Shown piece by piece: positions 4,142 through 47,580 of a stretch of DNA of 64,000 bases. Made by a program: the position numbers and the translations under genes. Positions within the stretch are counted from its first letter, which is position 1. Every line of letters begins with the position of its first letter. The DNA lies in the NCBI RefSeq assembly GCF_003334405.1, contig NZ_QOWM01000006.1. The stretch is one strand, 5' to 3'. Below the pieces are notes generated by a model. It made no database searches and had not been told where the DNA came from. It saw only the letters and a list, made by a program, of their open reading frames with translations. This DNA comes from Escherichia coli. GTDB taxonomy: Bacteria > Pseudomonadota > Gammaproteobacteria > Enterobacterales > Enterobacteriaceae.

Positions 4142-5185
4142 ATGCGTATTGAAGAAGATCTGAAGTTAGGTTTTAAAGACGTTCTCATCCGCCCTAAACG
4201 CTCCACTCTTAAAAGCCGTTCCGATGTTGAACTGGAACGTCAATTCACCTTCAAACATTCAGGTCAGAGCTGGTCCGGCGTGCCGATTATCGCCGCAAAT
4301 ATGGACACCGTAGGCACATTTTCTATGGCCTCTGCGCTGGCTTCTTTTGATATTTTGACTGCTGTGCATAAACACTATTCTGTCGAAGAGTGGCAAGCGT
4401 TTATCAACAATTCTTCCGCTGATGTGCTGAAACATGTGATGGTTTCTACCGGTACGTCTGATGCGGATTTCGAAAAAACTAAACAGATTCTCGACCTGAA
4501 CCCGGCATTAAACTTCGTTTGTATTGACGTGGCGAATGGTTATTCCGAACACTTCGTGCAGTTCGTTGCGAAAGCGCGTGAAGCGTGGCCGACCAAAACC
4601 ATTTGTGCTGGTAACGTAGTGACTGGTGAAATGTGTGAGGAGCTTATCCTCTCAGGTGCCGATATCGTTAAAGTTGGCATTGGCCCAGGTTCTGTTTGTA
4701 CAACTCGCGTCAAAACAGGCGTCGGTTATCCGCAACTTTCTGCGGTAATCGAATGTGCCGATGCTGCGCACGGTCTGGGCGGAATGATCGTCAGCGATGG
4801 TGGCTGCACCACGCCGGGCGATGTGGCGAAAGCCTTTGGCGGCGGTGCCGATTTCGTCATGCTTGGCGGCATGCTGGCGGGCCACGAAGAGAGCGGCGGT
4901 CGCATCGTTGAGGAGAACGGCGAGAAATTTATGCTGTTCTACGGCATGAGCTCCGAGTCTGCGATGAAACGTCACGTTGGCGGCGTTGCGGAATATCGCG
5001 CAGCAGAAGGTAAAACCGTTAAGCTGCCGCTGCGAGGCCCGGTTGAAAATACCGCGCGAGATATTTTGGGCGGCCTGCGTTCAGCTTGTACATACGTTGG
5101 GGCTTCACGCCTGAAAGAGCTGACCAAGCGCACCACGTTTATTCGTGTGCAGGAACAAGAAAACCGCATCTTCAACAACCTGTAA
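4142..5185 (+). CDS. guaC: GMP reductase
   Basis: 347-aa ORF, IMPDH/GMPR-fold sequence recognised as GuaC. Confidence 0.95.
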
Positions 5186-5219
5186 TCTCCCAACGCTGGC
5201 GTGGAGCAACACGCCAGCG

Positions 5220-6422
5220 TTATCCCATCCCACTCATCGCATCGCCTAAATGGAAAATTGGCAGATACATTGCCACCACCAGCGTACCAATAATTCCTCC
5301 CGTTATGATCAGCAACGCCGGTTCCAGTAAGGCTGCGAGGTTATCCGCCAGCGCCATTGTGTTTTCCCGATGATGATGGGCGAGGTTGTCTAACATGAGA
5401 TCCAGAGAGCCGGATGCCTCTCCTGTTCTCACTAATTGCAAACAGAGCGGGCTAAACTCACCGGTATTTTTTAGCGCCAGCCAGATGGGTTGACCGTTAC
5501 TGATATCGTGCTGGATTTGTGTCAGAAGTTGCACCCAGTACGGGCAGCGCATTGTTTCTCTGACGCTCTCTACGCCCTGTAAAAAAGTAATGCCTGCACT
5601 TTGTGTCAGCGCCAGAATCGTAAAGATCTGCGTGAGTTTTTGTCCCCGCATCAGTGAACCCATAATCGGGATGCGTAACAGCAATTTCTGCCGCACTATA
5701 AGCCAGGTCGGTCGGCGCATCAGCAACTTATTGGCTATCGCCAGCAGAAAGCCGAACAACACCAGCAGCCAGCTCCATTCGCCACTAAAGTCTGCCAGCG
5801 TCATGATCCCCTGCGTTAGTGCCGGTAGTGGGGTGTTGAAGGTCTTATAGATAGCGGCAAACTCCGGCAGAACAAAATGCAGCATTGCCACAACCACCAT
5901 GATTGCCATCGCTAAAATGATGATGGGATAACGTAACGCTGATTTCACTTTGTCGGTCAACTGACGCTGGGCTTTTTGCTGACGCGCCAGTTCAAAGCAG
6001 CATTCATCCAGCTTACCGGTCAGTTCACCCGTGCGGATCATCGCCTGATAGAGCGGCGGAAATACCTCTGACCAGGGTAATAAGGCATTGGAAAAAGCAA
6101 TGCCCTGTTCGAGATCGTGCGCCAGCGATTGCAGCAACGCTTGCCATTGCTTACTGGGATGCTGTTCCGCCAGCAGAGCCAGCCCTTCAGAAAGCGTTAA
6201 CCCTGCTTTGAGTAGCGTCGCCAGTTGATGAATGACTTCCGCGCTTTTATCTCCTCGCCACTGCGCAGAATTGATGGCGATTCGCTTCAGGCTTAGTGGG
6301 GTAACCATCTGTTGCTGTAGTGCCATAAGCAGTAAAGTACGGCTCTCTGCCCATAGCATCCCATCTTGCGCATTGCCGTCGCCGGTTATGCCATGCCAGC
6401 GCCAGAGTTGCTTACTCGCCAT
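5220..6422 (-). CDS. hofC: Type IV pilus assembly inner-membrane protein (PilC/GspF family)
   Basis: 400-aa ORF recognised as HofC; overlaps hofB by 11 nt. Confidence 0.9.
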   Translation of the reverse strand: MASKQLWRWHGITGDGNAQDGMLWAESRTLLLMALQQQMVTPLSLKRIAINSAQWRGDKSAEVIHQLATLLKAGLTLSEGLALLAEQHPSKQWQALLQSLAHDLEQGIAFSNALLPWSEVFPPLYQAMIRTGELTGKLDECCFELARQQKAQRQLTDKVKSALRYPIIILAMAIMVVVAMLHFVLPEFAAIYKTFNTPLPALTQGIMTLADFSGEWSWLLVLFGFLLAIANKLLMRRPTWLIVRQKLLLRIPIMGSLMRGQKLTQIFTILALTQSAGITFLQGVESVRETMRCPYWVQLLTQIQHDISNGQPIWLALKNTGEFSPLCLQLVRTGEASGSLDLMLDNLAHHHRENTMALADNLAALLEPALLIITGGIIGTLVVAMYLPIFHLGDAMSGMG

Positions 6423-7797
6423 GCGGCATCCCCAGTACGCGGATTAACTCTTCAAAGGTGGTTAAGCCTTGCTCTACGGCCAGGCAGCCGTTTTCAAAAA
6501 GCGTACGCATACCCGCCTGTCGTGCGTGCGTTTCCAGCGATTCAACGTCGGTATTAGCGGAAATAAGCTGACGAATGACCGGCGTTATGGGCAGAACTTC
6601 AAATAAGGCCGTACGACCATAAAAACCGTGGTAGCAATGTACACAACCGGGTGCCTGCCAGTGGGGCAGCGGCGATGGCCATACATTGTCTGGAATGTGG
6701 ATGGGCTCCCCTTGCTGCCGGCGACAATGTGGGCAAAGTTTGCGTACCAGACGCTGGGCTATTACCAGCGTAAGCGCCGATGATAGCATCCAGCGGGCGA
6801 CCCCCATTTGCTGTAAACGTACCAGCGTTTCGCAGGTGGAATTAGTGTGTAGGGTAGACAACACCAGGTGACCAGTTTGCGCCGCGTTAATAGCGATCTC
6901 TGCTGTTTCGCCATCGCGGATCTCTCCGATCATGATGACGTCAGGATCCTGGCGCAATAACGCACGCAAAACGCCCTGAAAGGTGAGTCCGGCACGCGGA
7001 TGGATTTGCGTCTGGTTTAGTCCGGCTATGGGGATCTCAACTGGATCTTCGACGCTACAAATATTAATGTCAGCGGTATTCAGCTTTTGCAGGGCACTAT
7101 AAAGCGTGACCGTTTTGCCGCTGCCGGTAGGGCCAGTTACCAGCACCAGTCCCTGTGGTTGTTGCAAGGCATGAGCAAAGTCCGCCAGTTGTAACGGCTG
7201 CATTCCAAGCGTGTTGACATCCAGTGCCTGACCCACCTGCTGTAACAACCTTAATACCACCTTTTCACCACCCCGACATGGTAAGGTCGCAATACGAAAT
7301 GAGACGGCGTTTCCTGCCAGTTCGACAGTGAATTGCCCGTCCTGCGGCAGGCGATGTTCCGCAATATCCAGGTTTCCCAGCACTTTTAATCTGGCGGTTA
7401 ATGCGACTCCGGCATCCGGTGAAACATCCGGTAAAGGATGCAATACGCCGTCGATACGCAAGCGGATGCGGTAGGCATTGTCCGCTGGTTCGATATGAAT
7501 ATCAGACGCGCGTTGTTCCAGCGCAGATTGTAACGTTCGAGTTAGCAACTCTGCTTTGGGCTGATGCTTCTCCTGAACAGCTACGGGCAATGTCTGTTGT
7601 GTGCGACTGGCGTGACCTTCCATTTGTTGGCGCGTCCAGCAGGTGATCTCAATACGTTTGGTGGTAGCGAAATGCAATGCGTCCAGTAGCTCATGCGAAG
7701 GTGCATCGACTACCGCAACATGAACCACCTCTTCGCTGGCATCCAGCAAGACTCCATGATAACGCAGACACAGGGCAGTGAGCTGTGGAATATTCAT
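6412..7797 (-). CDS. hofB: Type IV pilus assembly ATPase (PilB/GspE family)
   Basis: 461-aa ORF with Walker A GPTGSGKT and tetracysteine motif CPHC...CVHC. Confidence 0.9.
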   Translation of the reverse strand: MNIPQLTALCLRYHGVLLDASEEVVHVAVVDAPSHELLDALHFATTKRIEITCWTRQQMEGHASRTQQTLPVAVQEKHQPKAELLTRTLQSALEQRASDIHIEPADNAYRIRLRIDGVLHPLPDVSPDAGVALTARLKVLGNLDIAEHRLPQDGQFTVELAGNAVSFRIATLPCRGGEKVVLRLLQQVGQALDVNTLGMQPLQLADFAHALQQPQGLVLVTGPTGSGKTVTLYSALQKLNTADINICSVEDPVEIPIAGLNQTQIHPRAGLTFQGVLRALLRQDPDVIMIGEIRDGETAEIAINAAQTGHLVLSTLHTNSTCETLVRLQQMGVARWMLSSALTLVIAQRLVRKLCPHCRRQQGEPIHIPDNVWPSPLPHWQAPGCVHCYHGFYGRTALFEVLPITPVIRQLISANTDVESLETHARQAGMRTLFENGCLAVEQGLTTFEELIRVLGMPHGE

Positions 7798-7806
7798 TGC
7801 CGCTCC

Positions 7807-8247
7807 TTAGTTGGCGTCATCAAAGCGGAAGACATCTTCGCAGGCTTGCTGCAATGCGCTGTCACTTTGAATATTGCAGTTGCGCGTCCAGCCGGTGACG
7901 CCGTTTGCGTTATCCCAACCCGGTGTCATGACGACGCTTAGCCCATTGAGACTTTCTTGCCCGGTCAGCGACACCACGCCCTTTGCCACACTCATGGCTG
8001 AAACATAGCGGGTGGTGGTAGGCGAGGGAATGCCATTGCTGCCACCGTCGCAGGTATCTAATCCACCATGTTCCAGCGCGCACAACTCTACGGCGGTACG
8101 GTAAGGCACAAAGGTTTGTAGCATGTCGGTGAGTGCGGCTTTGCGCAGGTAGTTTTGATAAGCGGGAATACCAATGGCGCTTAAAATGGCAATGATGCCA
8201 ATAACCACCATCAGTTCGATAAGTGTAAAACCGCGTTGCTTGTCCAT
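7807..8247 (-). CDS. ppdD: Prepilin (type IV pilin)
   Basis: 146-aa ORF with N-terminal prepilin signature GFTLIELMVVIGIIAIL. Confidence 0.9.
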   Translation of the reverse strand: MDKQRGFTLIELMVVIGIIAILSAIGIPAYQNYLRKAALTDMLQTFVPYRTAVELCALEHGGLDTCDGGSNGIPSPTTTRYVSAMSVAKGVVSLTGQESLNGLSVVMTPGWDNANGVTGWTRNCNIQSDSALQQACEDVFRFDDAN

Positions 8248-8449
8248 CTGTTTCGCTCCTTGATTTGGTTGGCGCTACTTTGGCAAATGCCATCAGCACA
8301 GGCGAGGGGCAAAAAACGAAACGGGAAAGCAGATTCCGAGGTTTTTTATTTCGTTGCAGCGAAAGACAAGAAATTTGCGAGGCGTTACGAAGAAAGTTGG
8401 GGAAGGGGAGATTATCCGCCCGCGATGGAGCGGATAAATCTGTCAACTA

Positions 8450-9403
<954 letters not shown>

Positions 9404-27266: not shown

Positions 27267-27614
27267 TTATTTGACGTAGGCAAGCAGGCTTAAGGAATCG
27301 CGGGCCAGGGCTTTGCATTTTTTAGCGACGGGAATGCCAATGCCGCTGAGATCGCGGTAGCTGTCTTCACCGAGGGCTTTCATGTCGAAGGTGTCGTAAT
27401 TACTGAGGTCCCACTGGTTTTGCTGAGCGAAAAAGACCAGTGCGCGACGAATTTGCCCGTTAGGTAAGTTCTGGTAACCACAATCGTTCTTCAGAAAGAC
27501 AAAAACTGCCGTTAAATCGGCCATATCTTCGGCTTCAGACTCGCTGAGCGCGTAACTGTTTGCGCAGACGGCCATCAGGCTGCCGAATAACACTGTTCTG
27601 AAAAACGTCTTCAT
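27267..27614 (-). CDS. yacC: Uncharacterised small secreted protein YacC (possible PulS/OutS pilotin-like family)
   Basis: Start placed at MKTFFRTVLFGSLMAVCANSYA (signal peptide); ORF-track extension to 27785 rejected because it would overlap the cueO promoter and start. Confidence 0.8.
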   Translation of the reverse strand: MKTFFRTVLFGSLMAVCANSYALSESEAEDMADLTAVFVFLKNDCGYQNLPNGQIRRALVFFAQQNQWDLSNYDTFDMKALGEDSYRDLSGIGIPVAKKCKALARDSLSLLAYVK

Positions 27615-43525: not shown

Positions 43526-46123
43526 TTACTGAATCTGACACCGAATTCCATTCAGAATAATAGATTGTGCTATTTTTTCTGCTTCTGGGCTTTGTTGATA
43601 ATGCGCAAGACAACTTACGGGTTTACTTTGTTCGAGCCATTTAATGCTGATATTTCCCTGCTGCTCAATACCACGAACAAATGCTTGTCCACCCTGTCCA
43701 ACATTACCAATGACATTGCCTTGCTCATCATAAATATCTGCAGCAAATGGAATATTTTTACCATCACTTCGTGTGATGTTCATAATGGCTGATTGCCCTT
43801 GCACGGTTTCAAAATCAGCAAAGACGACTGAACCCTGACGCGGTACAGCTACTGCACTGGTACTTTTTAATTCAACATCGTTCTCAAGATCGTTGATATC
43901 CAGCGCGATACGGTTTTCATGATAAGGAGAAAGAGCGCTGGTGACACCATAACCCCATCGATCGATAGTACTGTTGCCATAATTTATTCGCGCTCCTTGA
44001 GCACCTGGAGCCTGAACTACCGCCAGTGTATCGGAGTCGCTAAAACTATCATTACTGAAAGTCAGTCCACCGCTATGCAATACAAAACCACCGTCGGTGC
44101 TGAGAGAAACTTGACGGCTGTTATCGCTATTTGCAGAAATTGAACCTGCCAGCGTTCCCCATGGTGACTCATAGCTGGCATAACCCCCAACATAACTCAA
44201 ATCTTTGCTGGCTTTATTCATCGTATAGCCAGTATTCACGCTATAACTGACGCGAGCGTTATCGCTATAGCCACTGCTGCTAACGTTGAGTTGGTTATTA
44301 CCCTTAAAGTCACTGCTTATTTGAGTATCAATACTCTGGAAACCTGAAGTACGTTGTTCAGTGCCAAGTAATTTTTCAATTGGAATGGTGAAACTAAGAT
44401 AAACGCTATCGTCAGTGTCGCCGTCTTCATTCCATGAACGCTGGGCACTGACACTGTAGCTGCCCCAGGATGTACTGTTACTGTAGCCAATAGAGTAATT
44501 GCTACGATTTTGTCCGGAAGCCCAGTAATCGGACCAACTTCCGGAAAGATAAAATGAACCGTAATCTTTTTTCTCAAATTTCAACGGTTGGTTAATACTG
44601 ACCGTAACCTGATTTTTCATGCGTGAGTAATTACGCATGGATTTCGGTTCAAGATCTTGTTCGGGATGTTTCACTTCATCAATTAGAGTTAGTGCATCAT
44701 TAAGACCAAGGTAATTCTGTGTCGAATAGCGATAGGCCGCGATATTCAGTGAAGTACTTGTTTCTTCGAATAACTTGTTCCAGGAAACACGATAACTTTG
44801 CCCCTGGTATGTTTTATCATCCGGGATACGAACATTGGAATGAGTCACATCGAAAGAAAATGCACCAACTGAAGTATTCAGACCAAGACCTAACAAACCA
44901 GCGGTATAGTTATTATCGGTTATCTGAATACCGGTATAACCCGTCAGATAGTTATTCAGGCCGTAGTAGTAGCTTGCTTGAAATAAATTAGGCTCATCCT
45001 GAATATCATCTTTTAAGACCTGACCGCCGCTAATATCCCAACGTCCAACGCCAGGGCGTAACATTTGAACAACGGATGAGAAAGGTTGCGAGAATGTCCG
45101 CTTTGAGCCATCGGATTCTTCGATGGTAACAATAAGATCGCTGCCGTACCCTGACGGACTCAGATCATCAATGACGAAAGCGCCTGGCGGCACCGTCGTT
45201 TCATAAATCTTATAGCCACCTTGCGTAATAGTGACTTTGGCGTTGGTATTGGCAACGCCATGAATGATAGGCGCAAAGCTGGCTAAAGTCGGAGGCAACA
45301 TGCGGCTGTCACTGTATAAACGAATGCCTCGGATACTGACGGAATCAAAGGTTTCGCCCGTCGTATAAGACTCACCAAGAATGAGTTGAGAACGCAGCGA
45401 GGCGATATCACGCTGAACATACCGATTCTTAAAATCATAATTACTGCCAGAATCGGTCATCCAGTTGTAGTTGCCCGAGGCACGCAGTCGCCATGCACCT
45501 AAATTCATCCCACCGTTAAATGCAGCATAAATGCTTTCATTTTTTCGACCAGGGGTTTCACTATGATATCCGTTGAGGTTGTATGACAACATGGCCGCAT
45601 TAATGCCGTTTTCCCATAACGATGGATCAACATAGTTTTGGTAATTTTTCATTACCCAGGCTTGAGGAACGTCTATATCCAGACGTTGATCGTTAACGTC
45701 ATAACGAACAGAAGCCTGAGGGATAATTTCCGTCAAATTGAGGCAATTGCCGAGCGTTTCATCCCTGGCAAGCAGAACGGCTTTTTCGTTATTTATATCG
45801 GGAGAATTAATATGAAACTGCAATAAATTCTTTAATGTGATACAAGCCTGGGCGTTCTTTTTTCCTTCAATTGCGACAAATGTAATACTTTGGTTAATGA
45901 TTGGTTGGTCGTTTACATAAACACTGACGTCGTAAACACCCGGTATAGCGGGGTTACCTTCACTGTACCGGCTGAGATCAATATTAGATGCATTCTGCCC
46001 CATCAGGAAGGTATGGTCATATTCAACGAGTTCAGCACTGAAAGCAGTATTGCAATACAGCAGCGCGCAAAACGTGGCGATACGGGTCAGATGATGATAA
46101 TTTTTAGTATATTCTATAGTCAC
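43526..46123 (-). CDS. htrE: Outer-membrane fimbrial usher
   Basis: 865-aa ORF, usher family, recognised as HtrE. Confidence 0.93.
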   Translation of the reverse strand: MTIEYTKNYHHLTRIATFCALLYCNTAFSAELVEYDHTFLMGQNASNIDLSRYSEGNPAIPGVYDVSVYVNDQPIINQSITFVAIEGKKNAQACITLKNLLQFHINSPDINNEKAVLLARDETLGNCLNLTEIIPQASVRYDVNDQRLDIDVPQAWVMKNYQNYVDPSLWENGINAAMLSYNLNGYHSETPGRKNESIYAAFNGGMNLGAWRLRASGNYNWMTDSGSNYDFKNRYVQRDIASLRSQLILGESYTTGETFDSVSIRGIRLYSDSRMLPPTLASFAPIIHGVANTNAKVTITQGGYKIYETTVPPGAFVIDDLSPSGYGSDLIVTIEESDGSKRTFSQPFSSVVQMLRPGVGRWDISGGQVLKDDIQDEPNLFQASYYYGLNNYLTGYTGIQITDNNYTAGLLGLGLNTSVGAFSFDVTHSNVRIPDDKTYQGQSYRVSWNKLFEETSTSLNIAAYRYSTQNYLGLNDALTLIDEVKHPEQDLEPKSMRNYSRMKNQVTVSINQPLKFEKKDYGSFYLSGSWSDYWASGQNRSNYSIGYSNSTSWGSYSVSAQRSWNEDGDTDDSVYLSFTIPIEKLLGTEQRTSGFQSIDTQISSDFKGNNQLNVSSSGYSDNARVSYSVNTGYTMNKASKDLSYVGGYASYESPWGTLAGSISANSDNSRQVSLSTDGGFVLHSGGLTFSNDSFSDSDTLAVVQAPGAQGARINYGNSTIDRWGYGVTSALSPYHENRIALDINDLENDVELKSTSAVAVPRQGSVVFADFETVQGQSAIMNITRSDGKNIPFAADIYDEQGNVIGNVGQGGQAFVRGIEQQGNISIKWLEQSKPVSCLAHYQQSPEAEKIAQSIILNGIRCQIQ

Positions 46124-46157
46124 GCTATGCTTCCTGCGGAATTATATCCTTGCCTGA

Positions 46158-46898
46158 TTACAGCCTGGCATTACCTTCAATTGCGCCACCAAAGTCATTA
46201 ATGGCGTAAAAATGCACTTTTGCAGAATTCGCTTTGCCATTAAGGCCATTGACTTTCATGACCTCATCACTAAATGGTGCAATCATTTTCACATCAATCG
46301 GATAGCGTTTACCGCTAGCTTCTAAATCACCACTGCTAAAAGAGACGTAGTAAGGGGTTGGATTGGTCACTCGTAATGACGCCTTACCTTCTGAACCTGA
46401 CCAGAACCACTTCAGGGCTAACGGGGCTTCAGAGGGATTTCCCTTCAATCCATCCGGGCGATAGAAAAGTTTTATACGTGTGCGAAATGCCAGTTGCAGC
46501 AGGCTTTGATTCGCGACCTTTTCTGCATCTGGTTTTGGTGGAACTTCCAGTACGTTAAACCAGAACACGCTCTCTCTGTCTTTAGGCAGTGAGGTGCTGG
46601 CTGTGTACATTAATTTGATTGTTTGCCCACGTTTGGCATCAATACGCGATACTGGCGGCGTAGCAGTAAAAGGGACTGTAATACTGCCAGGCTCAGCGTT
46701 GTCATCGCCAGTATCTAACCAACTCTGGACAAGCAACGGGTTATTCCCTTTATTTTCCAGACGTACGTTGACACTTTTTTGATCGCTTTTATATATTACG
46801 CGAGTACCCGAAATGACAATGTCCGCAATAGACGATGAACTAAAAGCCATACAGGTTACGAAGCATAAAGCTGTTGTATGTTTGGTGTTAAAAAACAT
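46158..46898 (-). CDS. yadV: Periplasmic fimbrial chaperone (PapD-like)
   Basis: 246-aa ORF with signal peptide and PapD-fold sequence; also known as EcpD. Confidence 0.9.
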   Translation of the reverse strand: MFFNTKHTTALCFVTCMAFSSSSIADIVISGTRVIYKSDQKSVNVRLENKGNNPLLVQSWLDTGDDNAEPGSITVPFTATPPVSRIDAKRGQTIKLMYTASTSLPKDRESVFWFNVLEVPPKPDAEKVANQSLLQLAFRTRIKLFYRPDGLKGNPSEAPLALKWFWSGSEGKASLRVTNPTPYYVSFSSGDLEASGKRYPIDVKMIAPFSDEVMKVNGLNGKANSAKVHFYAINDFGGAIEGNARL

Positions 46899-46926
46899 AA
46901 ACCATCCCTGATAGAGTTAATTAAAA

Positions 46927-46962
46927 CAGGGAATAATATAAAATAGAAATTATTATTCCCTG
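46927..46962 (-). other. Stem-loop between the major pilin gene yadN and chaperone gene yadV
   Basis: cagggaataat - 14-nt loop - attattccctg, perfect 11-bp stem in an otherwise AT-rich spacer. Confidence 0.5.
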
Positions 46963-46995
46963 TATATTCATTCAATCAATTTAACTGGTGAATAC

Positions 46996-47580
46996 TTACT
47001 GATAAGTAATGGTGTATGCAGTGTTAGTTTTTACATAACCAGCAGTTGCTGTTTGGTCTGCGACGGCACGAACGTAAGACGCTTTAAAATCATAAACAGC
47101 AGATTTTGTCGTTGCATCCAGGGCTTTAGTATACACATCGCCAGGGTTGTTAATTTGAACCTGTTTGATAGTGGAACCATCAATATTGTGTAGAGCGATA
47201 TTAACGCCGTCAGATGGGTTGTTAATAGACATGTCGTTGTTCAAAGTCCCTTTGCTGTTACCAAAGAAAACAGAACCGAAGGTCATTTTAGCCGTGCTAC
47301 CTGGATTCGGATTTGCTTTGCTGCAGTCAACGGTGATGCTGAAAGGTTTAGCTTTAGCGCCAACGGTGTCATTCAGTACGCCAGCATCGATTTCACCAAC
47401 GGTTGCGGTTTGCAGCAGGATCAGACCATCCTTGTTACCGCCGTCAACGCGGGTTTCACAGGTGTTATCAACAACCAGACCACTGATATTTAACTGACCG
47501 CCGTCCATATCAGCAGAAGCAGTACCTGCAACCATCGCCAGCATAAGACCAGACAGGGCAAAACCTAATTTTTTAGACAT
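46996..47580 (-). CDS. yadN: Fimbrial major subunit
   Basis: 194-aa ORF with signal peptide; first gene of the operon; pilin C-terminal motif (..YTITYQ). Confidence 0.9.

Follow-up and report, generated by a model that had tools for sequence, protein, structure and literature searches.

The ppdD-hofB-hofC operon of Escherichia coli: an intact locus for type IVa pilus components with a candidate CRP-S-type site upstream

Introduction

The closest described counterparts of the locus analyzed here are the ppdD-hofB-hofC operon of E. coli K-12 (b0108-b0106) and hcpA-hofB-hofC of EHEC (the type IVa pilus, or haemorrhagic coli pilus, operon), whose role is identical to that of the K-12 operon. The EHEC haemorrhagic coli pilus (HCP) is composed of the same pilin, is made in Minca medium, and is adhesive and cytokine-inducing (PMC2920817). 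The pilABCD operons of Haemophilus influenzae and Vibrio cholerae and the pilA/pilBCD-coaE genes of Pseudomonas aeruginosa display the same order of pilin, PilB-type ATPase and PilC-type platform genes; however, the E. coli locus differs from them in having no prepilin peptidase gene after the platform gene. The core of type II secretion systems (GspG, GspE, GspF) is drawn from the same three protein superfamilies.

Gamma-proteobacterial pil operons are controlled by a CRP-S site together with Sxy/TfoX (PMC1635313). In the case of ppdD, CRP binds an upstream fragment in a gel shift assay, and Sxy induces the gene 90-fold in a CRP- and cAMP-dependent manner, the effect being abolished in crp and cyaA backgrounds (Cameron & Redfield 2006, PMC1635313). 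The requirement for both CRP and Sxy was confirmed in another study (bioRxiv 10.1101/284836). Induction of sxy results in production of the PpdD pilin, of which none was detected in 72 ECOR strains, and in low, hofQ-dependent DNA uptake that is below direct detection and visible only with lambda Red (PMC3330819); the gene tested in that work was hofQ, not ppdD, hofB or hofC. Inactivation of ppdD leaves the "natural" plasmid transformation observed on plates unaffected (PMC6135910), and no natural signal inducing sxy is known. The genes of the operon serve in a working plasmid-borne 13-gene assembly system, in which pilus formation is dependent on hofB and hofC, and whose other assembly genes are hofMNOPQ, ppdAB-ygdB-ppdC and gspO (bioRxiv 10.1101/856302). 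The operon, the pilus structure, the scattered partner genes and the CRP-Sxy control have all been published already, and the locus described below is intact and ordinary.

Results and Discussion

The window, i.e. the whole 64-kb stretch of DNA that was analyzed, is E. coli K-12-like and aligns end to end with MG1655 at 99.98% identity. The stretch comprising ppdD, hofB and hofC is 99.9% identical to that of MG1655, with two single-base differences, at positions 6886 and 8288. All three genes are located on the minus strand: ppdD (hcpA; 7807..8247, 146 aa), hofB (6412..7797, 461 aa) and hofC (5220..6422, 400 aa), and the boundaries taken from the ORF list are the same as in the MG1655 RefSeq annotation. 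A gap of 9 nt separates ppdD from hofB, with the ppdD stop codon TAA overlapping the hofB Shine-Dalgarno sequence AAGGAG, while hofB and hofC overlap by 11 nt (6412..6422). The guaC gene (4142..5185, plus strand) is convergent with hofC and lies 34 nt from its stop codon. Genes, order, boundaries, overlap and neighbors (nadC upstream, guaC convergent) are those of the K-12 operon. The compact operon next to guaC, with its 11-nt overlap, that was proposed in a preliminary description of this DNA agrees with these coordinates, and the gene names given there stand, as the ORFs match the MG1655 annotation, all three products pass their NCBIfam equivalog cut-offs, and nothing counts against the identities. 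We have little doubt that this segment is the E. coli ppdD-hofB-hofC operon encoding the subunit, ATPase and platform of a type IVa pilus, switched by CRP and Sxy and apparently derived, with loss of pilD, from a pilABCD-coaE-zapD-yacG cluster.

The 11-nt hofB/hofC overlap was also found in the Salmonella and Citrobacter loci and in a distant locus (L026), with overlaps of 1, 4 or 8 nt in other distant loci. This layout suggests that translation of hofC is coupled to that of hofB.

The nadC-ppdD spacer (8248..8449, minus strand) was analyzed as the regulatory region by means of its sequence, hairpin folds and an alignment of 18 sequences. It contains a hairpin at the 3' end of nadC (8409..8441), a putative CRP-S-type CRP site (8373..8394, minus strand; the 22-mer ttcTTCGTAACGCCTCGCAaat), an A-rich -10-like stretch (8342..8348), a GGAA/TTCC dyad (8324..8337), a T-run (8311..8322), an invariant TGnCAAAGT block (8277..8285) and the ppdD Shine-Dalgarno sequence AAGGAG (8256..8261). 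The core of the candidate CRP site, TTCGT-N6-TCGCA (8376..8391), is centered 136.5 nt upstream of the ppdD ATG and has C at position 6 in both half-sites. This is the sole match (2 mismatches) to TGCGA-N6-TCGCA in the spacer, although such a match alone is not significant, since the 29 matches of this kind in 64 kb imply about 0.09 chance occurrences per 202 nt. What lends the candidate weight is not the match itself, but the gel shift in the literature and the conservation of the site. The primers of the shifted fragment map to 8331..8461, enclosing the site; the right half, TCGCA, is present in 15 of the 18 aligned Escherichia, Citrobacter and Salmonella-group sequences; the Citrobacter counterpart of the core is TTCGA-N6-TCGCA; and comparable sites, about equally far from the start codon, occur in Salmonella and in the distant loci L021, L024 and L025. 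The site thus has the features of the CRP-S regulon (22 bp, C6 half-sites, no canonical CRP-N site, location upstream of the first gene), and the comparison supports the presence of a conserved CRP-S-type site upstream of ppdD. A search of this spacer had been recommended in the preliminary description; the single conserved candidate that it yielded is in effect a published result. The accompanying view of the operon as normally silent and Sxy/CRP-inducible is borne out by the literature (90-fold induction, PMC1635313; pilin made on sxy induction, PMC3330819).

A consensus scan of positions 5100-8600 identified no sigma-70 promoter (2.7 expected in shuffled sequences), and a search of Rfam over 5000-8700 gave no match at E≤1. 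Three placements of a ppdD promoter were also considered by eye, namely at the -10-like stretch at 8342-8348, at class I spacing from the CRP-S center, and at the TGnCAAAGT block at 8277-8285; none combined canonical CRP spacing with a good hexamer. The Escherichia -10-like element is without the final T found in most Salmonella and Citrobacter sequences. The base change at 8288, located 41 nt upstream of the ppdD ATG, has no exact match among the aligning complete E. coli genomes.

Within the ppdD leader, the block GUUUCGUUUUUU (8311..8322) is predicted to pair with the ribosome-binding region AAGGAGCGAAAC (8250..8261). In the 18 aligned leaders, 87% of the cells pair in register, compared to 50-67% when the partner is slid, and RNAalifold also predicts this pairing, with an energy of just -1.68 kcal/mol. 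Three pairs were changed on both sides, a level of covariation in these 18 leaders that is not significant (reached by 66 of 500 shuffles). Burial of the ribosome-binding site, judged by its accessibility relative to that obtained with shuffled upstream sequences, was confined to the six Escherichia sequences (bottom 0-12% of shuffles); Citrobacter, Salmonella and the more distant loci did not show it. The helix was rejected as a conserved element on the basis of the covariation, the weak RNAalifold energy and the confinement of burial to Escherichia. An Escherichia-only post-transcriptional lock, in which the helix would mask the site so that even existing ppdD mRNA would yield little protein until the structure opened, is a doubtful possibility, and would need a transcription start upstream of 8322. 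If true, the helix and the -10-like element without its final T could partly account for the hard-to-induce piliation and competence of E. coli.

The main natural function of the pilus might be adhesion, biofilm formation and host signaling (as HCP) rather than DNA uptake, with the "competence" label reflecting common ancestry and regulation only. The adhesive, cytokine-inducing HcpA (= PpdD) pili that EHEC forms in Minca medium (PMC2920817) and the barely detectable DNA uptake of K-12 favor this interpretation; however, the promoter is Sxy-responsive and has the CRP-S signature typical of competence regulon members, and an exposed adhesin would not normally be as conserved as this pilin (dN of about 0.06 for ppdD versus 0.17-0.21 for hofB and hofC in the comparison of E. 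coli with Citrobacter). The two roles can, moreover, coexist, and we consider adhesion as the main function to be possible, but on balance unlikely.

The assignment of the operon to a type IVa pilus is based on the properties of its three products. PpdD (NCBIfam NF007862, 269 bits versus a cut-off of 138; GFxxxE domain TIGR02532 above cut-off) is identical to the MG1655 protein. Its 6-residue leader, MDKQRG|FTLIE (on to LMVV), provides Gly-1, Phe+1 and Glu+5, and four Cys residues are located at precursor positions 56, 66, 124 and 136; the class III signal peptide, hydrophobic N-terminal helix and C-terminal Cys are those of a type IVa major pilin. A PDB search with PpdD retrieves the solved EHEC pilus 6gv9 (E=3e-91) as well as 6gms. 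HofC (NF007861, 661 bits versus 401) contains the two T2SSF repeats (Pfam, residues 64-186 and 269-388) of a PilC/GspF-class platform protein. HofB (NF007755, 822 bits versus 617) consists of a T2SSE domain (residues 75-453, E=3e-146) preceded by a weak MshEN match (8-69). It carries the Walker A motif GPTGSGKT (222), the Walker B/Asp box region with VIMIGEIRD (287), the His box TGHLVLSTLH (308) and the tetracysteine motif CPHC(355)/CVHC(385) of PilB/GspE-class assembly ATPases. Its PDB homologues are PilB and GspE, with E of about 1e-104 for the PilB matches. Compared to PilB, the N-terminus of HofB is about 100 residues shorter, the alignment starting from PilB position 160 of 564.

The names attached to HofB raise the alternative that these genes encode not a pilus but the pseudopilin, GspE and GspF of a type II secretion system: both PGAP, which labels hofB "gspE" in MG1655 RefSeq, and NF007755 call the protein "type II secretion system protein GspE", and HofC and PpdD produce sub-threshold matches to GspF and GspG. 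However, the Gsp equivalog scores are all below their cut-offs (HofC on TIGR02120, 264 versus 424 bits; PpdD on TIGR01710, 29 versus 89), and HofB scores higher with the PilB model (483 bits) than with the GspE model (TIGR02533; 457 bits, cut-off 630), both values being under the respective cut-offs. Furthermore, no gspC, D, L or M genes are located nearby and the operon is flanked by no other gsp genes, the syntenic distant locus has the order pilin-ATPase-platform-peptidase-coaE, PpdD is the subunit of a true type IV pilus (6gv9), and the assembly of that pilus reportedly needs hofB and hofC (bioRxiv 10.1101/856302). The secretion reading, which we find very hard to credit, was rejected and the "GspE" label regarded as a naming quirk.

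As a type IVa pilus locus, the operon is incomplete. Genes for a secretin, a prepilin peptidase or minor pilins are absent from the MG1655 annotation of the 64-kb window, none of hofMNOPQ, ppdAB-ygdB-ppdC and gspO is annotated there, and the window's annotation includes no PilT-type retraction ATPase (HofB scores 181 bits on the PilT family model, versus a cut-off of 319). This upholds the earlier statement that the rest of the machine is absent from the window, the partners being those named previously (bioRxiv 10.1101/856302). The pilus machine is dispersed, and the operon is a member of a type IVa system, not a self-sufficient unit. The window's sole further pilus genes are those of the Yad chaperone-usher operon, along with the pilotin-like yacC.

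Synteny comparisons revealed that the locus context is kept from Escherichia out to relatives with 35% HofC identity, with coaE-zapD-yacG linked downstream. In L026 the order is pilin-ATPase-platform-prepilin peptidase-coaE-zapD-yacG, the peptidase being of the A24 family, while in E. coli the slot after the platform gene is filled by guaC, on the opposite strand. The Vibrio and Pseudomonas pilABCD-coaE clusters presumably share this pilin-ATPase-platform-peptidase-coaE order and the coaE-zapD-yacG linkage. Gene order suggests that the E. coli locus descended from a pilABCD-coaE-zapD-yacG cluster and lost pilD, which would explain why a prepilin peptidase is needed from elsewhere.

The operon was recovered, at a coverage of 80% or more, from 5424 of the 5426 complete E. 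coli genomes. At divergences up to dS of about 2, dN/dS was 0.02-0.06 for ppdD, 0.07-0.09 for hofB and 0.06-0.12 for hofC, values comparable to those of nadC, ampD and coaE. The three genes are under purifying selection. The absence of inactivating mutations noted in the preliminary description holds for stops and frameshifts, with no internal stop codons in any of the three ORFs, but HofB carries a missense change: the difference at 6886 results in K304N, with N304 in the window. Position 304 is K in 20 of 22 orthologues, and the 3426 complete E. coli genomes aligning to that stretch include no exact match. The idea that the operon is a functionless relic, silent and decaying into pseudogenes, draws on the lack of expression in laboratory media and in 72 ECOR strains, the failure to find a consensus sigma-70 promoter, the apparent loss of pilD and an IS903B within the matched 5000-8600 stretch of one complete genome, but the intact ORFs, dN/dS values like those of the neighboring housekeeping genes, near-universal presence, conserved CRP-S site and use of the genes in a working plasmid-borne system led us to reject it as highly improbable.

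Based on these results, the literature and family knowledge, the following mechanism is proposed. In ordinary culture, transcription is undetectable; cAMP-CRP and Sxy (TfoX) acting upstream of ppdD switch the operon on, as shown by others. From the layout, hofB and hofC would be translated from one shared mRNA, with hofC coupled to hofB. A prepilin peptidase whose gene lies elsewhere (GspO or PppA) cleaves and N-methylates PpdD, and hexameric HofB then acts on HofC to lift pilins from the membrane into a fiber, which is primed by the minor pilins PpdA-PpdB-YgdB-PpdC and leaves the cell via the HofMNOP-HofQ complex. The published outputs are weak hofQ-dependent DNA uptake in K-12 and the adhesive, pro-inflammatory HCP of EHEC.

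The discovery value of this analysis is small. It confirms the annotation and gives a positive, previously known answer regarding CRP-S. It makes small additions to the picture of how E. coli competence and piliation are shut off: strong purifying selection on "silent" genes, an apparent pilD loss, a ribosome-binding-site trap that may exist in Escherichia only, and a HofB variant absent from the complete genomes searched.

Finally, a 12-bp perfect inverted repeat, AACGCTGGCGTG / CACGCCAGCGTT (5192..5221, strand not assigned), is located between the convergent guaC and hofC genes and overlaps the hofC stop codon. It folds at -24 kcal/mol on either strand (ViennaRNA) and, although it has no T-run on either side, is probably a two-way terminator or a transcript-stabilizing hairpin.

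Organization and identity of the ppdD-hofB-hofC operon

All essentials on ppdD, hofB and hofC have already been published, and the analysis supported the preliminary description of these genes, which proved accurate. The mechanical ORF list placed ppdD at 7807..8247 (146 aa), hofB, named 'gspE' by PGAP, at 6412..7797 (461 aa), and hofC at 5220..6422 (400 aa), all on the minus strand and with boundaries equal to those in the MG1655 annotation. The guaC gene (4142..5185, plus strand) converges on hofC. The gap between ppdD and hofB is 9 nt, the ppdD stop codon being contained in the hofB Shine-Dalgarno sequence, while hofB and hofC overlap by exactly 11 nt (6412..6422). Both the ORF list and the MG1655 annotation therefore agree with the compact operon adjoining guaC, with its 11-nt overlap, that had been proposed. 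Where guaC and hofC converge, the intervening DNA holds a perfect 12-bp inverted repeat (5192..5221) that extends into the stop codon of hofC. Its fold energy is about -24 kcal/mol on either strand, and a T-run is present on neither side.

In a megablast search, window 5000-8600 matched 5,425 of 5,426 complete E. coli genomes, with at least 80% query coverage in 5,424, and the features annotated in the matches were ppdD, 'gspE' (hofB), hofC, guaC and nadC. In E. coli strain 74-2 (NZ_CP050044.1) the match is split in two pieces by an IS5-like IS903B, a rare natural case of interruption of this stretch.

The assignment of the products as a prepilin, a PilB-like ATPase and a PilC-like platform protein was borne out, as each exceeded its own NCBIfam equivalog cut-off: PpdD with 269 bits (cut-off 138), HofB with 822 (617) and HofC with 661 (401). 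The features of a type IVa prepilin are present in PpdD: its leader has six residues, it has Gly-1, Phe+1 and Glu+5, and it contains four cysteines. Among solved structures it matches the pilus subunit of EHEC (6gv9, E=3e-91; also 6gms). HofB contains Walker A, an IGEIRD box, a His box and a CxxC...CxxC zinc motif. Its T2SSE domain is complete and its MshEN domain weak, and it was aligned to solved PilB and GspE ATPases with E of about 1e-100. Its score with the PilB model was slightly above that with the GspE model, both being under threshold; the name 'GspE' in the databases is accordingly a labelling quirk. Two T2SSF repeats, as in PilC/GspF platform proteins, are present in HofC.

A candidate CRP-S site upstream of ppdD

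The proposed search for a CRP-S site (consensus core TGCGA-N6-TCGCA) was run on the 202-nt nadC-ppdD spacer (8248..8449). It yielded one candidate with two mismatches (core 8376..8391), whose minus-strand 22-mer, ttcTTCGTAACGCCTCGCAaat, carries a C at position 6 of each half-site. The 64 kb contains 29 matches of this kind and shuffled sequence contains more, and the ppdD match alone is not significant. The weight of the candidate comes from (i) its location within a CRP-bound fragment, (ii) conservation of a half-site, and (iii) its conserved position in distant loci. The site falls within the 131-bp fragment used in published gel-shift assays (primers map to 8331..8461), in which purified CRP shifts the ppdD upstream DNA (Cameron & Redfield, PMC1635313). 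The right half-site, TCGCA, is retained in 15 of 18 aligned sequences of Escherichia, Citrobacter, Salmonella and Pseudocitrobacter, and several Citrobacter sequences have TTCGA-N6-TCGCA, one mismatch from the consensus. In distant loci, sites with 8-9 of 10 core matches were found almost equally far from the start codon, the core beginning at -144 in the window, -142 in Salmonella, and -140, -150 and -160 in the distant loci L021, L025 and L024, respectively.

The description of the operon as normally silent and inducible by Sxy and CRP agrees with published work. Sxy induces ppdD 90-fold, with a requirement for crp and cAMP (PMC1635313), and Sxy mutants give no ppdD induction (bioRxiv 10.1101/284836). 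PpdD protein is made upon sxy induction, and none was present in 72 ECOR strains; DNA uptake is hofQ-dependent and detectable only with lambda Red (PMC3330819). EHEC grown in Minca medium builds haemorrhagic coli pili from the same pilin (PMC2920817). A scan of 5100-8600 detected no consensus sigma-70 promoter, which is consistent with activator dependence.

Other elements in the nadC-ppdD spacer

A putative leader (8340..8244) was folded with ViennaRNA. In the predicted structure the ribosome-binding site is hidden in a helix of GUUUCGUUUUUU (8322..8311) with AAGGAGCGAAAC (8261..8250); the fold energy is -29.9 kcal/mol and the z-score -2.26. The pairing is retained in 87% of cells of the 18-sequence comparison, versus 50-67% in slid registers. 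Covariation in the helix was not significant among these 18 sequences, and the RNAalifold energy of the pairing was only -1.68 kcal/mol. When accessibility was compared with that in shuffled upstream sequence, burial of the ribosome-binding site was confined to the six Escherichia sequences and was not found in Citrobacter, Salmonella or the distant loci. On these results the helix was rejected as a conserved element, and it is at best lineage-specific. For it to be part of the mRNA at all, the transcription start would have to lie upstream of 8322. The block TGnCAAAGT (8285..8277), invariant across the 18 aligned sequences, resembles an extended -10 element and could act as such, in which case the predicted leader helix would fall outside the transcript. 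No Rfam family matched 5000-8700 at E<=1.

The spacer also contains a conserved GGAA-N6-TTCC dyad (8324..8337), with longer palindromes in distant loci (GGAAGAGAGCTTCC in L021 and GAAGCGCGCTTC in L022). Where Escherichia has a simple hairpin at the nadC 3' end (8409..8441), some Citrobacter species (L008, L009 and L013) have a longer GC-rich palindrome, GCCGGATAAGGC...GCCGCCATCCGGCA, which we take to be REP-like; the CRP-S site just downstream of it is retained.

Differences from MG1655

The window and MG1655 share 99.98% identity; over the 64 kb there are 11 substitutions and one 1-nt deletion (positions 6886, 8288, 10785, 16890, 16949, 18383, 24972, 38378, 54491, 55110, 62523 and 62863). They are located in hofB, ampE, aceF (two), rpnC, hrpB (two), fhuB (two) and at three intergenic sites. 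Two of the 12 (6886 and 8288) lie within the operon region. The difference at 6886 changes Lys to Asn at HofB codon 304 (K304N), four residues ahead of the His box. Of 22 orthologues, 20 have Lys at this position, with identities reaching down to 48%; the two most distant of the 22 have Gln or Glu. Lys is also found in the three best-matching PilB structures with displayed alignments. A match to the 61-mer around K304N was given by 3,426 complete E. coli genomes, and not one of these matches was exact. At 8288, which adjoins the invariant TGnCAAAGT and precedes the ppdD ATG by 41 nt, the plus strand has T where MG1655 has C; none of 5,230 complete E. coli genomes matched this variant exactly, and S. 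bongori carries the same base as the window. The differences may come from a mutated K-12 derivative or from altered sequence.

Selection and evolutionary origin

In comparisons of the window with 12 loci of other Escherichia and Citrobacter species, dN/dS was 0.02-0.06 for ppdD, 0.07-0.09 for hofB and 0.06-0.12 for hofC, in the same range as for nadC, ampD, coaE and zapD. On these values the silent operon is not decaying. Among the three proteins conservation is highest for PpdD, with about 90% amino-acid identity in Salmonella and Citrobacter; dN versus Citrobacter is about 0.06 for ppdD and 0.15-0.21 for hofB and hofC. A major pilin exposed at the surface is not usually so well conserved, and this is the reverse of the common pattern of exposed type IV pilins.

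The order ampD-nadC-ppdD-hofB-hofC-guaC(convergent)-coaE-zapD-yacG was found in all Escherichia and Citrobacter loci compared. The same ampD-to-yacG order occurs in Salmonella enterica, S. bongori, Pseudocitrobacter, C. koseri and C. rodentium, within the extent of those loci, and in metagenomic relatives with a HofC identity of only 35-46%. One relative has coaE immediately 3' of the platform gene, and another has an ABC transporter inserted ahead of guaC. The most distant locus compared, L026 (GCA_036251705.1, a 2.39-Mb complete genome; HofC identity 33%), has the order pilin-ATPase-platform-prepilin peptidase-coaE-zapD-yacG on a single strand, without guaC. Its peptidase gene (L026 6188..6949; A24_N_bact and Peptidase_A24 domains), between the platform gene and coaE-zapD-yacG, occupies the slot that in E. 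coli and its relatives holds guaC on the opposite strand (window 4142..5185). Read most simply, this one outgroup locus would make the E. coli operon the descendant of a pilABCD-coaE cluster from which pilD was lost, with guaC now in its slot. Such a loss would explain the need for a peptidase encoded elsewhere.

Other pilus-related genes in the window

Gene content was judged from the MG1655 annotation of the aligned stretch, secA to fhuB. This annotation includes no secretin, prepilin peptidase, minor pilin or PilT-like gene, as expected from the preliminary description, which had placed the rest of the pilus machine outside the window, and none of the partner genes named in the literature (hofMNOPQ, ppdAB-ygdB-ppdC and gspO; bioRxiv 10.1101/856302) lies within it. 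The only further gene that might be linked to machines built around a secretin is yacC (27267..27614, minus strand). Its 115-aa product is 'pilotin-like' and a relative of the secretin pilots PulS/OutS (NF037975, 197 bits). The second pilus cluster of the window is the annotated Yad chaperone-usher fimbrial operon, yadC-yadK-yadL-yadM-htrE-yadV-yadN (about 40412..47580, minus strand), of an assembly class unrelated to the type IV pilus.
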